A stretch of 64,000 bases of DNA from an uncultured virus (IMG/VR IMGVR_UViG_3300030098_005439) (IMGVR_UViG_3300030098_005439); one strand, 5' to 3'. Numbered from the stretch's first letter, positions 35,882 to 41,486 are shown. The notes: generated from the letters alone by a model not told the origin. Program-made: numbers and translations.

Positions 35882-36763
35882 TTACCCGGTGCGGCGCTTA
35901 AAGGCACGCGCAACTGCGAGTTTACGAGCATCGTGAATCCCGAAAGCTTTGTCAGAAACTGACTTTTCGGCACTCTCAGGGACATTAGCCGTTTCTGTAG
36001 CACCGGCTGTCATTTGTGCGCTAGCCCGAGGTTGGACGGATTTTGTCTCTGAAACTTTAGAGTCTGCCTTAGCCAGCCTAACAGCGTAGTGAGGGGGGAC
36101 GTTTTGCGCCATATAAGACAGCGTTGTCTGGACATATGCTGGATTATTACTGCGAACAAAATCTACGGCAATCTCTGGATCAATTCCATCATTGATGAAT
36201 TGGAGAAACTTTTCTCGGCTTTCATCATTATCTATCACATCAGCATTCTTTTGCTGAAAATCCCGAGCCCATTGTTCAGCTTCTGCTTTCTCTTTAGCAT
36301 TGATCTGATCAATGCGGCCTCGGTATTCATTGATACTTTCTTCAAACTTAGACTTTTGATCTGCCCAAGATTGTTTATCTTTTTCGTATTGAGCCAACTG
36401 CTGTTCAGCTTTGTTGTATTTCTCTCGGAAATCCTTTCCAATATCTTCCCCTTCAAGAAGGGCTTGATACAACTCACGATCCTGTTCAAGAGAATTACGG
36501 ATGCTATCCAATTCTTTATTTAGATGCCCACTGAGGCCCTCATGCACTGGACGGTATGGATCTGGAAGCGTTTCAACTTGACCATCCCAAGCACTAAAAT
36601 CGAATTCAGGCAGACGATATTCCGGTTCTGCTGAAGATTCTGTTTCAGCGAAAGATTCTTCGGATACCGATGCGGTTTCCGAAGTATCACTGATTTCTTC
36701 GGAAGAAGTTTCTTCGGATACCGATTCGACCCCTTCTGTGGATTCCATAGATTCATCACTCAT
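35882..36763 (-). CDS. capsid scaffolding protein
   Basis: Acidic disordered N-terminus, central coiled coil, short basic C-terminal helix; upstream of MCP. Confidence 0.75.
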   Translation of the reverse strand: MSDESMESTEGVESVSEETSSEEISDTSETASVSEESFAETESSAEPEYRLPEFDFSAWDGQVETLPDPYRPVHEGLSGHLNKELDSIRNSLEQDRELYQALLEGEDIGKDFREKYNKAEQQLAQYEKDKQSWADQKSKFEESINEYRGRIDQINAKEKAEAEQWARDFQQKNADVIDNDESREKFLQFINDGIDPEIAVDFVRSNNPAYVQTTLSYMAQNVPPHYAVRLAKADSKVSETKSVQPRASAQMTAGATETANVPESAEKSVSDKAFGIHDARKLAVARAFKRRTG

Positions 36764-37179
36764 GCAGTTCCTCCCATAGCATTTTCAACTGCTTTACTTC
36801 GAGCGTCTGACATAGACACCTCTCCTTCTTGTGGCTCTTCGTCCACTGGAGGTTCTTCCATACCTCCAATACGAACAATCTCAAAACCTTGTGCCCGCAA
36901 CTCATTCATAACAGATGCGGGATCGGAAACGCCAGAGGCCAAAACTGTGCCCAGGGCTGCTTCTGCATCATTATCGGACGGGGCAGAACCTTCGGCATCC
37001 ATAAGAGCGGCTTCCGCCCTCATGTCTTCTGAATCTACTTCTGGCAAACCTTCAGCCCCTGACGCCCCCGGTCCGAGTTCGGCTTCTTCTACTTCAAGTT
37101 TTGCCAATTCCTCATTAATTTGATTCATCAAATCTTCAGAGGTCATCTGTTGGTAAGCGGCGGGATTTTCAGCGGGCAT
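36760..37179 (-). CDS. acidic head-module protein
   Basis: 139 aa, Glu-rich, ends in DARSKAVENAM. Confidence 0.7.
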   Translation of the reverse strand: MPAENPAAYQQMTSEDLMNQINEELAKLEVEEAELGPGASGAEGLPEVDSEDMRAEAALMDAEGSAPSDNDAEAALGTVLASGVSDPASVMNELRAQGFEIVRIGGMEEPPVDEEPQEGEVSMSDARSKAVENAMGGTA

Positions 37180-37594
37180 TTTTTGCTCCTGTATCTAAAG
37201 TAATTTTTGTAGCTTTATCTTTTATCTCAAGCTTCTTTTCTTTTTGGAAATTATTCCAATCTTTATAGCCCTGCTTCTGGACGCGCTGTTCCCTACGTTC
37301 ATGTAGACGTTCGCGCTTATTCTGCCAATAAGCGCTACTACGATCAACGAATCTACAGTTAGGGTTATCTTTAAGATATTGGCGAGCCTCAGAATTAGAT
37401 TCTGCTTTGAGGCCCGCTGAGTTGATTACCAGTGGATTAGAGAAAATGATTCCCGCAGTAGCAAACATTGTGGGGAGTTTCTTCCCAACAGCATCGCAAT
37501 CGGGGCATGGATAATCTTCACCATCCGTAGCCCGAGGTGCTAAAACATCATCCACTACCCCGCAGTTAGGGCACTCTATCTTATACAAGGGCAT
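37169..37594 (-). CDS. FmdB-like zinc-ribbon protein
   Basis: MPLYKIECPNC...CPDC. Confidence 0.75.
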   Translation of the reverse strand: MPLYKIECPNCGVVDDVLAPRATDGEDYPCPDCDAVGKKLPTMFATAGIIFSNPLVINSAGLKAESNSEARQYLKDNPNCRFVDRSSAYWQNKRERLHERREQRVQKQGYKDWNNFQKEKKLEIKDKATKITLDTGAKNAR

Positions 37595-38931: not shown

Positions 38932-40749
38932 TTATTTCCTTTTCGGTGCTGGGTCACCGGGGCCACCAGCCGCCCCGGTTGGAAGAACTACGCGAGGACC
39001 GGTTGAAGCGATCGGTCCCCCAGGTGTACTTGTATCACGAATATCTCGTTGATTTACTTGTGGAAGCTGTTTTTGGGGTTCCCCACCACCTTCCATACCC
39101 ATTTGCGCCATCATAGCCTGCTGTTCCATCGCCTTTTCTTCCTCTGAAATCATTAAATCAGGATCAAGATTCAAAAGGTCAATGACTGTACCGACCAATC
39201 GGCGCTTATCAATATCAGCCGACGCCGATAGAAGATCCAAAACTTGAGAAAGGTTTCTCAATTGGATGGTTCGACTGTTCTCTGTTGGGGAGTATGGGAT
39301 AACATCGTAATCAAAATCTAGCGGATCTTCTAAGAGTGTTCCGTCATGAACAGACCCTGGATCGCGAGCACCAAATGTACGGCGAGAAACCATCATAGCT
39401 TCTTGACGGCCCGTAAGTCGAACAGGAATTTGGCTACCCGGTTCAAGGAATTCTTCGTATAAACCGACAGTAATCTCTGCCATCCATTGAATAACATCTT
39501 GGATTGCCTGTAAACGACGACCGTTACGTGTCCGTACAGCCGTTTCCGCTAATGCAACTTCAGTAGCGACATCGGCTACGCCGACTACGCCGCGCTGAAA
39601 TTGAGGTAGCCCAAGGGTGAATTCAATGTTTTTAGTGATCCGCTCGCGCATCGTATTGAAGCTAGGAGACAAAGCTGTAGTGGGAGTGTTCGCGATAATG
39701 TCGCCAATACCAATGCCCGGTTTGGCATGAATGGCTACAGCATCCCCTGGACTTGTAGCCTCAAGGAGATCCTTGATAAATGCCCCAGGGTTATCTACGA
39801 GTCCCGACTGAAATAACGTGACCGGAATAGATGATTGGGCGTGCCTCAACTCTAGAGTGTCCAACTCATTGAGCATTTGCTGTTGCCGATCAATCAATTG
39901 AATATCGGAAATGCCTTCAAGACTTTGCATGTTATCGTTGAAGGTAAGCAAACGATAGTTATTGCGTACAAACCGATATGGAAGTTTATCTTGGAATAGC
40001 GGTTCTTCTTCGTCTGCTAGGTAATGGTAATACTTATTACCTACGAAATCGTAAACCTCATAGACAGTGATCCAATCAAAAGCTTCAGAACTAATGTCCC
40101 GACTTTTCTTAAGAGCGGGCTTTAGCCAACGTGGGTAACTACCAAATTGAGCCCGCTTAACGACATCGCTATCATACCGGCGCTTGCCCCGAGGCTTATT
40201 AGGGTCGCGGGGAGCCTTGGCCCTACGCTTAAACTCTTCCCGAGTAATAGTGGTGACTTCGATTAGATACCGAATATCTTCCCAACGTTCAGCCGAAAGA
40301 TCAAAGAAAACGAATCTAGGATCTAGGATACGAAACTCAGTCCGTTTTCTGGAGAACCTCCAGACGCCTTTCATGATCGCTCGACCATACACAGAAGCAT
40401 AGGTCGAAAGCCGCCAAAGCAATTGGGCAGCACGTACTCGCTTTAGAGTATCATTAACAAGGGCTTCTCGATACTTCGCAAAATCAGTACGAAGATCGTT
40501 ACGGGCGTTTACCGTGACTTGTGGATTCGGGGGGACAATTGAACTGACCATCGAATCGACGAATGAATAGGGATAATTAGTTTCAACAGCAACGTCCGAG
40601 TCGTCAAACCCACTTTGGAGGTCGCGGTTTTCTCCCCAATACTCAGACCGATAGTACCGCAGATAGCGATCCCACTTTTTACGCTCTTCTGCTGATCGTG
40701 TTTTGTGGACACTAATCAAATCCCGAATTTGTTTTCCTTTAAGTCCCAC
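38932..40749 (-). CDS. portal protein
   Basis: 605 aa between TerL and scaffold; GLPQFQRG..ATEV, FDYDVIPYS and Q/M/G-rich tail typical of podovirus portals. Confidence 0.85.
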   Translation of the reverse strand: MGLKGKQIRDLISVHKTRSAEERKKWDRYLRYYRSEYWGENRDLQSGFDDSDVAVETNYPYSFVDSMVSSIVPPNPQVTVNARNDLRTDFAKYREALVNDTLKRVRAAQLLWRLSTYASVYGRAIMKGVWRFSRKRTEFRILDPRFVFFDLSAERWEDIRYLIEVTTITREEFKRRAKAPRDPNKPRGKRRYDSDVVKRAQFGSYPRWLKPALKKSRDISSEAFDWITVYEVYDFVGNKYYHYLADEEEPLFQDKLPYRFVRNNYRLLTFNDNMQSLEGISDIQLIDRQQQMLNELDTLELRHAQSSIPVTLFQSGLVDNPGAFIKDLLEATSPGDAVAIHAKPGIGIGDIIANTPTTALSPSFNTMRERITKNIEFTLGLPQFQRGVVGVADVATEVALAETAVRTRNGRRLQAIQDVIQWMAEITVGLYEEFLEPGSQIPVRLTGRQEAMMVSRRTFGARDPGSVHDGTLLEDPLDFDYDVIPYSPTENSRTIQLRNLSQVLDLLSASADIDKRRLVGTVIDLLNLDPDLMISEEEKAMEQQAMMAQMGMEGGGEPQKQLPQVNQRDIRDTSTPGGPIASTGPRVVLPTGAAGGPGDPAPKRK

Positions 40750-41226
40750 CTATTCTTCCTCTCTCATATTTATCTCTACTTCCTGCAAAGCTTCCGCAGG
40801 AATAGAAAACTGAAGGACTCTCCCTCCTTCAGACTCTACGTGCTGTTGCGTAATGGGAATACCCGACTGCGCTAATCTTGCATAGACTTTGATGGCATCC
40901 GGTGTTGGAGCAAGGTCGCTCTTAAATCCGAGCCCATTGTCTTTCGCATACTGGAGTGCCTGTAGATAGAGTTGCGTCCCAATTCCCTGTCCACGCATTT
41001 CTTCCGGCAATTCGATAGACCGGACGCCGATGTTCTCAGCATCCTCTTCAAAGGTGAGGCCAATAGAATAATCCGTCTGTTCAAGGCGATCTCTCATTTG
41101 CTTAGACGTGATGTGAGAAAACTCACCATCATTTTCGACTTTCCAGTCAGTTTGAGGCCCCGCATGGCGAGCGATGGCATGGCAAACTGCCGACCTTCGA
41201 GCGACGATGTGGGGTATGTGAGGCAC
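40750..41226 (-). CDS. GNAT-family acetyltransferase
   Basis: VRSIELPEEMRGQGIGTQLY (acetyl-CoA RxxGxG motif) and TPDAIKVYARL. Confidence 0.8.
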   Translation of the reverse strand: MPHIPHIVARRSAVCHAIARHAGPQTDWKVENDGEFSHITSKQMRDRLEQTDYSIGLTFEEDAENIGVRSIELPEEMRGQGIGTQLYLQALQYAKDNGLGFKSDLAPTPDAIKVYARLAQSGIPITQQHVESEGGRVLQFSIPAEALQEVEINMREEE

Positions 41227-41486
41227 TACTTACCCAAACCTTGCGACATTTGTAGCTTCTGACTGCCCTGTTTTGCGGATTGAGTCATTGAAGCTGTATC
41301 TGGCCCGCTCGGTTGTTTGGCTTGAGGTTTTTTGGGCCTTTGCGGACCGCGCATCGCTCCAGAAAGACTAGAGCCAAACATTTGACTGGAAGGTTGAGCG
41401 CCAAACATTCCCCCAGGTCGTCTCTTATTCATCGCCCTTTTTATAGCTGCGGTTCGCGCCTCTTTAAGATTAGACCCATAAAACAT
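41226..41486 (-). CDS. small basic disordered protein
   Basis: SD AGGAG; 86 aa, coupled to GNAT. Confidence 0.65.
   Translation of the reverse strand: MFYGSNLKEARTAAIKRAMNKRRPGGMFGAQPSSQMFGSSLSGAMRGPQRPKKPQAKQPSGPDTASMTQSAKQGSQKLQMSQGLGK

Follow-up and report, generated by a model that had tools for sequence, protein, structure and literature searches.

A short helix shared by a putative scaffolding protein and head-module accessory proteins is a candidate procapsid-docking tag

A short motif recurs in five head-module genes

The head module analysed here carries a short motif that is common to the C-terminal tail of a putative scaffolding protein and to several accessory proteins, and that probably acts as a portable procapsid-docking helix, addressing both scaffold and cargo into the head. 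The original prediction, made on the window (the whole 64-kb stretch of viral DNA analysed), had claimed six copies of the pattern x-A-R-x-x-A-[VAI]-x-x-A-[MLFI]. Six-frame translation recovered all six at the positions claimed, on the minus strand and inside five real head-module genes, and found no match elsewhere in the window in any of the six frames. The accompanying gene assignments also hold, by family matches for the large terminase (terL), the portal protein and the GNAT acetyltransferase, and by fold for the major capsid protein (MCP). The genes are the following:

34761..35843, minus strand: MCP, 360 aa, HK97 fold in its model, proposed tag receptor
35882..36763, minus strand: putative scaffolding protein, 293 aa, acidic, adjoining the MCP gene upstream, C-terminal tag
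36760..37179, minus strand: strongly acidic 139-aa protein (32 D+E, 6 K+R), C-terminal tag
37169..37594, minus strand: 141-aa zinc-ribbon protein, untagged; Pfam Zn_ribbon_8 at 1e-5, under the curated cut-off
37595..38929, minus strand: 444-aa protein, mostly disordered by model and alignment, two internal tags
38932..40749, minus strand: portal protein, 605 aa, untagged; PHROG portal at 2.4e-8, Pfam SPP1_portal
40750..41226, minus strand: GNAT acetyltransferase, 158 aa, N-terminal tag; Pfam Acetyltransf_1 at 2.5e-6
41226..41486, minus strand: basic 86-aa protein rich in Gly, Ser and Gln (15 K+R, 2 D+E), N-terminal tag
41496..43319, minus strand: terL, 607 aa, untagged, upstream boundary of the module

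The tag copies lie as follows:

35900..35932, minus strand: copy 1, DARKLAVARAF, scaffold, 14 residues from the C-terminus, then KRRTG and the stop codon
36775..36807, minus strand: copy 2, DARSKAVENAM, C-terminus of the 139-aa protein
37946..37978, minus strand: copy 3, EARKDAVARAM, 444-aa protein, immediately ahead of its conserved domain
38222..38254, minus strand: copy 4, EARSEAAKNAL, variable region of the 444-aa protein
41173..41205, minus strand: copy 5, VARRSAVCHAI, GNAT, about residues 9-19
41430..41462, minus strand: copy 6, EARTAAIKRAM, 86-aa protein, residues 10-20

When the 69 called proteins of the window (20,201 aa) were each shuffled internally 1000 times, the loose pattern occurred on average 0.035 times (maximum 2) against the 6 observed, and a D/E-led version 0.006 times (maximum 1) against 5. 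As the pattern was fitted to copies already seen, these figures overstate its significance; the enrichment in relatives described below is an independent test and removes this worry. Ala makes up 8.9-15.8% of the tag-bearing proteins and 6.9-16.6% over the listed genes. It is encoded in the tag copies by GCT, GCA, GCG and GCC, and Arg by CGT and CGA; since the codons vary between copies, the tag is not a DNA repeat and its conservation is at the protein level. The two large internal or ejection-type proteins of the window, of 838 and 1982 aa, are without the tag, which is thus not the sole route into the virion.

The motif is enriched at protein termini in related head modules

The survey of relatives comprised 80 related loci from viral contigs; adding the window brought the set to 281,075 aa in 1134 unique called proteins. 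In it, 123 copies of the core R..A[AVI]..A[MLFIV] are present, against 7.3 +/- 2.6 in 200 shuffles, and 102 of the 123 lie at most 30 residues from an end, where 1.8 would be expected. Some tags are N-terminal, some C-terminal and some within linkers. An origin by chance or as an in-frame DNA repeat might be raised on the grounds that the pattern was defined post hoc and that Ala is fairly common in the listed proteins, but it is refuted by the excess over shuffles in the window (6 vs 0.035) and in the survey (123 vs 7.3), by the variety of codons and by the antisense control given below.

A relaxed core, R-x-x-[AVI]-[AVIS]-x-x-A-[MLFIV], counted as terminal when within 30 residues of an end, is found in this position in 45 of 108 variable head-module accessory proteins (shuffle mean 0.4, maximum 3). 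It is terminal in none of the 330 terminase, portal, capsid and tail-proximal proteins of the relatives and in 1 of 290 antisense ORFs. Outside the terL-to-MCP interval it is terminal in 10 of 175 proteins. At any position, 14 proteins outside the module carry it, 10 of them upstream of terL; most of these 10 sit between a terS-like gene and terL. By regular expression, 14 of 32 complete loci have no tagged accessory protein, and looser variants of the tag were seen by eye in many of these 14.

The tag is the conserved C-terminal helix of the putative scaffold

The name scaffold is putative: it was given on the strength of the gene's place directly upstream of the MCP gene, the acidic composition of the product (61 D+E vs 35 K+R) and its conserved C-terminal helix, with no homology behind it. 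The protein has no match in Pfam or PHROG at E <= 0.01, and a profile of 37 sequences retrieved only coiled-coil noise from the PDB (E >= 0.02). The order scaffold-MCP is identical in all 11 loci mapped.

Across the 37 aligned orthologues, at 20-46% identity, only nine columns are invariant, and R280 and A287 of the tag are among them; the other invariant blocks are W59, D120-P121-R122 and P245-A255. The relaxed core lies at most 30 residues from the C-terminus in 43 of 44 scaffold orthologues and never at the N-terminus, and basic residues commonly follow the C-terminal amphipathic helix. Among more distant representatives, the regular expression is matched within the final 30 residues in 73 of 150, and close variants occur in most of the others.

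Among the three observations that the original prediction named as telling against it were an equal frequency of the motif in non-head proteins and a lack of conservation in homologues. With the motif concentrated in the head module as counted above, and with R280 and A287 of the scaffold and A9, R10, A13 and A17 of the GNAT conserved, both comparisons favour the docking-tag reading.

Tagged accessory proteins include candidate cargo enzymes

The tagged proteins of the window differ in how widely they are kept. The 139-aa protein had been taken for a sporadic accessory, wrongly, as it belongs to a conserved family of small acidic proteins whose genes lie just upstream of the scaffold gene throughout the lineage. 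The 444-aa protein is poorly defined in its Atlas model (pLDDT 0.52, pTM 0.23), and alignment with two orthologues delimits a conserved C-terminal domain of about 65 aa. The core of copy 3 is invariant in the three orthologues of this protein, and copy 4 is absent from a near-identical phage (L009, portal 99% identical). In the AF2 model of the GNAT, which matches GNAT structures in Foldseek, the acetyltransferase core spans residues 55-150 and the tag falls in a helix at residues 6-19 predicted with pLDDT below 50. Its residues A9, R10, A13 and A17 are invariant across five orthologues, with the consensus [EQI]AR..A[VA]C[HR]A[MI].

Over the whole survey, 54 tagged non-scaffold proteins have at least 100 aa: five GNATs, three ART-PolyVal ADP-ribosyltransferases (ARTs; E 1e-15 to 8e-21) and 46 without a Pfam family. 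The MuF family (PF04233) is found in none of the 54. The tagged ARTs occupy two different gene positions, and only one of 61 ART homologues from elsewhere, a near-identical one, has the tag; another of the 61 has a MuF head-protein domain in its place. MuF fusions are described as predicted head-delivered effectors, and the T4 protein Alt as an ART loaded into the head and then injected (PMC5512222). The presence of the tag on ADP-ribosyltransferases and GNATs strengthens the idea that it marks cargo.

The capsid protein as a predicted receptor

The MCP matches the PHROG major head protein (2.7e-6). Its AF2 model (mean pLDDT 70.9, pTM 0.72) has an HK97 fold, matching phage capsids and encapsulins in Foldseek with probability 1.00 and E down to 3.4e-10. 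The motif is found in none of 36 MCP orthologues, 39 zinc-ribbon orthologues and 61 portal orthologues. The zinc-ribbon protein is a conserved gene of the head module, with 56 BLAST hits among the ORFs of the loci. The lineage is uncultured. A tblastn search of 50,697 phage records with the portal gave no match, and none of these records exceeds 23% identity to terL, whose matches to PHROG terminase and Pfam Terminase_6C are weak.

When the MCP was modelled together with scaffold residues 256-293, the predicted complex scored 0.51 (runs 0.51, 0.51 and 0.43), against 0.00 for the best of three controls, with at least 74% of contacts agreeing between runs and a partner pLDDT of at least 55. Of 157 solved complexes, 116 reach the score mark that it passed, as do 2 of 215 mismatched pairs; at 0.60 or under, only 18 of the 157 solved complexes passed, together with both passing mismatches, and these calibration counts hold only roughly for a complex predicted, as here, from alignments built for this analysis. 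The prediction covers the scaffold tail rather than a cargo tag and returned no individual contacts, so that it does not show the motif itself to be the interface. Searches of the PDB gave no sequence relative for either chain. The MCP N-arm is just slightly more conserved than the rest of the protein (0.78 vs 0.71) and does not discriminate. The modelling thus lends weak support to binding between the MCP and the scaffold tail. Of the original claim that the tag docks inside the procapsid, the head-module enrichment and the conservation stand, and MCP binding comes down to this weak in silico pass.

Proposed mechanism and alternative readings

The tag would form a helix of about four turns with the consensus Phi-x-x-Phi-R-x-x-A-A-x-x-A-Phi, often followed by basic residues; on one face would lie a hydrophobic residue, the invariant Arg and two or three Ala, with Leu, Met or Phe at its end. 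By analogy with the 'helix-and-hook' of 80alpha and the P22 scaffold tail, we infer that the inner surface of the HK97-fold MCP is the most likely binding site of the scaffold C-terminal helix in procapsid assembly. Other proteins that carry the same helix, at either terminus or within a disordered linker, could occupy the same site and thereby be built into the procapsid. Candidates are the small acidic protein, the basic disordered 86-aa protein, the disordered 444-aa protein and the GNAT, and in relatives the ARTs and dozens of orphans. On expansion of the shell and exit of the scaffold, cargo that is folded would be retained, and would later be ejected along with the DNA into the host, in the manner of Alt and the internal proteins of T4.

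The receptor could be different with the same encapsidation. It is unlikely, but arguable, that the tags pair with one another in a scaffold-to-scaffold helix bundle, so that cargo joins the scaffold core and not the shell: the A-x-x-x-A spacing (A4/A8) on one face is typical of tight helix-helix packing, T4 capsid-targeting sequences likewise lead their proteins to the scaffolding core, the MCP complex prediction is weak, and W59, D120-P121-R122 or P245-A255 of the scaffold could hold the MCP contact instead. Against such a bundle, the MCP-plus-tail prediction passed the mark with all three controls at 0.00, and the extreme C-terminal helix of the 80alpha scaffold is described as the shell-binding element (PMC5644958). 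We give a low probability to docking on the portal or another conserved head protein, such as the 141-aa zinc-ribbon protein, which would place the cargo in low copy at the portal vertex. MuF/SPP1 gp7-type proteins are incorporated in that way, tagged genes lie on both sides of the portal gene, the zinc-ribbon protein is conserved lineage-wide without an assigned role, and ART-PolyVal domains are reported elsewhere fused to the portal-associated MuF domain (PMC5512222). A scaffold, however, has to bind the shell and is required in hundreds of copies, and the helix is the most conserved terminal element of this one.

An absence of any assembly role seems quite improbable. The motif would then be a recognition site for a chaperone, protease or regulator, or a recurrent Ala-rich capping helix, and degrons and chaperone tags are also typically terminal. 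Yet ssrA-like degrons sit at the extreme terminus and the tag does not, family searches matched no head protease among the head-module genes and other window ORFs scanned, the motif is confined to the scaffold and head-module accessory genes (0 of 330 core proteins and none elsewhere in the window), and its Arg and Ala are invariant in scaffolds that share as little as 20-46% identity.

If the docking-tag reading is right, the proteins injected by this widespread marine lineage would include an acetyltransferase along with ADP-ribosyltransferases, a small basic protein associated with DNA and dozens of orphans that evolve fast, and the set would turn over even between near-identical phages. 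More tentatively, tailed phages with separate scaffolds may possess an encapsulin-like cargo code in which the scaffold tail helix serves as a portable tag, so that the sequence by itself would tell which proteins are loaded into the head and injected.

Comparison with known systems

A close structural precedent for the Ala-faced tail helix is that of the 80alpha scaffold gp46 and the SaPI1 protein CpmB, which have in common a C-terminal 11-residue amphipathic helix and hook on the capsid N-arm, and in which A198I in the 80alpha helix is lethal (PMC5644958). As described there, the helix has a small-residue face and a basic hook and lies inside an HK97-fold capsid, and a second, otherwise different protein with the same tail takes the same site. 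Unlike the scaffold studied here, for which Pfam, PHROG and PDB searches gave no sequence relation to this pair, 80alpha has its binding solved, whereas ours is weakly predicted. The tail here also occurs on many proteins per genome, at either terminus or in linkers and on enzymes too, whereas CpmB is a satellite's competing scaffold and not cargo. MuF/SPP1 gp7-type proteins resemble the present case in their ART-PolyVal effectors, their head-module genes and their predicted delivery to the host (PMC5512222), but they are packaged by means of a folded MuF domain (PF04233), in place of which stands, here, a helix of 11-14 residues.

Encapsulin cargo-loading peptides are likewise terminal, are found on enzymes and bind the inner face of an HK97-fold shell, and encapsulins match the MCP model. 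The consensus of encapsulin targeting peptides appears to differ from the tag. The present system, by contrast with encapsulins, belongs to a DNA-packaging virus with terminase and portal genes, and its shell needs a scaffold bearing the same peptide.

In T4, the capsid-targeting sequences of IPI-III and Alt are short peptides by which proteins with no relation to one another, an ADP-ribosyltransferase among them, are sent into the prohead to be injected; here too the tag is on unrelated proteins, among them candidate host-modifying enzymes (five GNATs and three ARTs, beside the 46 family-less proteins). The T4 sequences are strictly N-terminal, are removed by the prohead protease gp21 and target the scaffolding core. 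The tags here, in contrast, are at either end and are the scaffold's own tail, and family searches of the window found no head protease, an absence that is not proof. Engineered P22 virus-like particle nanoreactors load an HK97-fold procapsid with cargo that has been joined to the C-terminal region of the scaffold and so carries its coat-binding tail (e.g. PMC9962691). Those are man-made and use a long scaffold fragment, whereas the arrangement proposed here would be natural, minimal and lineage-wide.

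Organization of the head module

By gene content, the 64-kb window looks like a phage genome. Its replication and recombination arm encodes a primase/VapE-like protein, helicases, RecT/YqaJ, and a family-A DNA polymerase fused to a UDG-type domain, while the long structural arm lies on the minus strand and includes the head genes listed below.

Genes from terL to the major capsid protein (MCP)
41496-43319 (-): terL, head module
41226-41486 (-): 86-aa head-module protein; small, basic, disordered
40750-41226 (-): GNAT acetyltransferase, by Pfam match
38932-40749 (-): portal, head module
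37595-38929 (-): 444-aa head-module protein
37169-37594 (-): 141-aa zinc-ribbon protein; Zn_ribbon_8, below the curated cut-off
36760-37179 (-): 139-aa protein; small, strongly acidic; overlaps the scaffold's start codon
35882-36763 (-): putative scaffold, 293 aa, by position, acidic composition, and conserved tail
34761-35843 (-): MCP, by fold check

The AF2 model of the MCP has a mean pLDDT of 70.9 and a pTM of 0.72, and Foldseek matches it to phage HK97-fold capsids and encapsulins with a probability of 1.00 and E-values down to 3.4e-10. The 293-aa protein has no family match or PDB sequence match, and is assigned as the scaffold because of its position, its acidic composition, and its conserved tail. 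The gene for the 141-aa zinc-ribbon protein is conserved in the head modules of relatives, with 56 BLAST matches among locus ORFs, and a second small Zn_ribbon_8 protein is encoded in the replication arm at 8172-8387 (+).

Several other features of the window were observed. The polymerase gene (61257-63908, +) encodes a 3'-5' exonuclease domain and an N-terminal fused domain of the uracil-DNA-glycosylase superfamily. In the early/replication arm, 50097-53351 (+) holds an AAA ATPase gene followed by a DUF2201 metallopeptidase-like/VWA protein gene, with a 287-aa gene without family match between them (51182-52042). Two neighboring DUF2589 paralogues (8493-10148, +) likewise flank a 178-aa gene without family match (9000-9533). 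A run of 10 N (34102-34111) falls inside a 536-aa tail-proximal gene (32556-34166).

The tag is mostly terminal and enriched in specific protein classes

The original prediction reported six copies of a short peptide tag in head-module genes, and all six were recovered where they had been placed, in real genes. Translated in all six frames, the window contains exactly six matches to x-A-R-x-x-A-[VAI]-x-x-A-[MLFI], compared to 0.035 expected from within-protein shuffling of the 69 called proteins. With D or E preceding, five are observed versus 0.006 expected in the same shuffles. Synonymous codons vary among the six copies, so that the peptide rather than a DNA repeat is conserved, and a repeat is ruled out.

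Searching viral contigs with the portal gave 82 loci at 99% to 44% portal identity, of which 80 were used after removal of two duplicates. No cultured relative emerged: among 50,697 phage records, the portal gave no tblastn match, and terL matched only at 23% identity or less. The 1134 unique called proteins of the loci and the window contain 123 copies of R-x-x-A-[AVI]-x-x-A-[MLFIV], versus 7.3 ± 2.6 in shuffles, and 102 of these copies lie at most 30 residues from a protein end, where 1.8 are expected. A slightly relaxed core, R-x-x-[AVI]-[AVIS]-x-x-A-[MLFIV], was used to count such terminal copies by protein class.

Terminal copies of the relaxed core by protein class
Scaffold orthologues: 43/44, always C-terminal
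Variable accessory proteins between terL and MCP: 45/108 (shuffle mean 0.4, maximum 3)
Terminase, portal, MCP, zinc-ribbon, and tail-proximal proteins: 0/330
Antisense ORFs: 1/290
Proteins outside terL-to-MCP: 10/175

The window shuffles, the enrichment in relatives, and this split between classes rule out chance recurrence. When copies anywhere in the sequence are counted, 14 proteins outside the module have the relaxed core; ten are encoded in the stretch upstream of terL, most between a terS-like gene and terL. By regular expression, 18 of the 32 complete loci encode at least one tagged accessory protein, and in the remaining 14 looser variants are often visible by eye, for example with a displaced Arg or with Asn or Ser in place of Ala. 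Inspection by eye for matching of scaffold and cargo tags within a genome showed no consistent pairing of the residue before the Arg and the last residue.

A position profile, built on 39 copies from scaffolds and 81 from other proteins, lengthens the motif to Phi(-3)-x-x-Phi(0)-R(+1)-x-x-A(+4)-A(+5)-[KR]-x-A(+8)-[LMF](+9), usually followed by basic residues. Judged from the sequence, these positions would share one face if the segment is helical, with the A-x-x-x-A spacing pointing to close packing on a second helix.

Conservation of individual copies

In 37 scaffold orthologues at 20-46% identity, two of the nine invariant columns are the tag Arg and the last tag Ala. A profile search of 1.84 billion representatives returned 356 scaffold family members at E ≤ 0.001; the regular expression is kept within the last 30 residues in 73 of the 150 members listed, and most of the others are close variants. 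A second conserved block, P-R-x-x-A-x-x-T-x-G-A, occupies scaffold residues 245-255, about 25 residues ahead of the tag, with P245, R246, A249, G254, and A255 invariant in the 37 orthologues.

Of the window's copies, the N-terminal one in the GNAT is the weakest; nevertheless, A9, R10, A13, and A17 do not vary among five orthologues, three of which read [EQ]-A-R-x-x-A-V-C-[HR]-A-M. In the 444-aa protein, the second copy lies within a strongly conserved block immediately ahead of a domain of about 65 residues, and the first copy is absent from locus L009, a phage with a 99% identical portal. The first ~300 residues are disordered and hypervariable. Despite the near-identical portals, the 444-aa protein and its L009 counterpart are only 46% identical. 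The window protein contains repeated short acidic units resembling L-[GR]-E-S-x-V-D-P-D-E, along with a duplication of the segment G-R-R-L-P-S-A-G-E-L-E...M-A-G-S-G, and has no Pfam or PHROG family and no usable Atlas match.

The 139-aa protein represents a lineage-wide family always encoded immediately upstream of the scaffold, with a small domain containing an invariant Gly, an acidic linker, and a C-terminal tag with a basic tail. Twelve of 13 aligned rows fit this description, and the 13th looks like a wrong ORF call. This protein may be a co-scaffold.

Identity of the tagged proteins

Scaffolds aside, 54 tagged proteins are at least 100 residues long; they comprise five GNATs, three ART-PolyVal ADP-ribosyltransferases (ARTs), and 46 without Pfam family. 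PHROGs matched 4 of 40 tagged proteins; apart from the ART region and a weak endolysin-like hit, these matches were uninformative. The endolysin-like match (1.7e-6, residues 517-704) falls in the 807-residue protein of locus L039 and marks that protein as a candidate for injection and wall degradation. The genes at L039:573-2996 (+) and L040:6556-9000 (+), on two related loci, encode proteins of 807-814 aa that carry the tag at residues 6-16 and again near residue 87. The 86-aa window protein resembles the T4 internal proteins, which are small, basic, and disordered.

The three tagged ARTs (E-values from 1e-15 to 8e-21) occupy two different gene positions, and only one of 61 ART homologues from elsewhere has the tag, a near-identical protein, which rules it out as part of the domain family; another homologue has a MuF head-protein domain in its place. 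That the tag is part of the GNAT fold is not supported, the Pfam match beginning at residue 57-63. In the GNAT AF2 model, helix 6-19 and segment 25-53 have a pLDDT below 50 and the core (55-150) is modelled, an indication that is weak given an alignment of five rows; a Foldseek search for the GNAT subfamily returned only generic GNAT matches (best E-value 3.1e-4). According to PMC5512222, the ADP-ribosyltransferase T4 Alt travels in the phage head and is injected, and MuF-fused enzymatic domains are predicted head-delivered effectors.

Docking models

The observation of the original prediction is thus borne out and broadened to the whole lineage. Its interpretation as a capsid cargo-loading signal stands as the leading reading, which we consider reasonably probable: the tag would be a portable procapsid-docking helix common to scaffold and cargo, and we infer its receptor as well as the encapsidation and delivery of tagged proteins.

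A complex predicted from the MCP alignment and scaffold residues 256-293 scored 0.51 (runs of 0.51, 0.51, and 0.43), compared to 0.00 for the best of three controls, a score that does not specify the interface contacts. At least 74% of contacts agree between runs, with a partner pLDDT of at least 55. Of 157 solved complexes, 116 attain the complex-score mark, as do 2 of 215 mismatched pairs; at 0.60 or under, only 18 of the solved complexes attain it, together with both passing mismatches. These benchmark counts are approximate here since our own alignments were used. The prediction lends weak support to docking on the shell. It does not separate shell binding from bundling of the tags with each other and the scaffold core, nor from attachment to the portal or to the zinc-ribbon protein, and conservation of the MCP N-arm is not discriminating.

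T4 capsid targeting sequences are removed. No head protease family was found among the window ORFs scanned, so the tags are probably kept.

If the tag works as proposed, sequence alone would list the proteins that an uncultured, abundant marine phage group brings into its host, early-acting effectors of a class usually found only through virion proteomics. The tagged orphans and the GNAT and ART enzymes would then be candidates for anti-defence or host-takeover functions. Being about 14 residues long and, on this reading, able to work at either end, the tag could be a natural loading handle for phage-derived particles.

Comparison with known systems

In the openly accessible literature covered, largely abstracts, we found no account of the motif, nor of phage cargo enzymes that naturally bear scaffold-tail tags. 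Among solved systems, the nearest precedent is the tail common to the 80alpha scaffold and SaPI1 CpmB, where a C-terminal 11-residue amphipathic helix and hook bind the capsid protein N-arm, and A198I in the helix is lethal (PMC5644958). The tag system would work like CpmB scaffold mimicry, the T4 capsid targeting sequence, and encapsulin cargo peptides, though it lacks some defining features of each of these families. If true, it would join three topics treated apart, namely the binding of scaffold to shell, capsid targeting as in T4, and cargo loading in encapsulins, in all of which a short helix would dock inside an HK97-fold shell.
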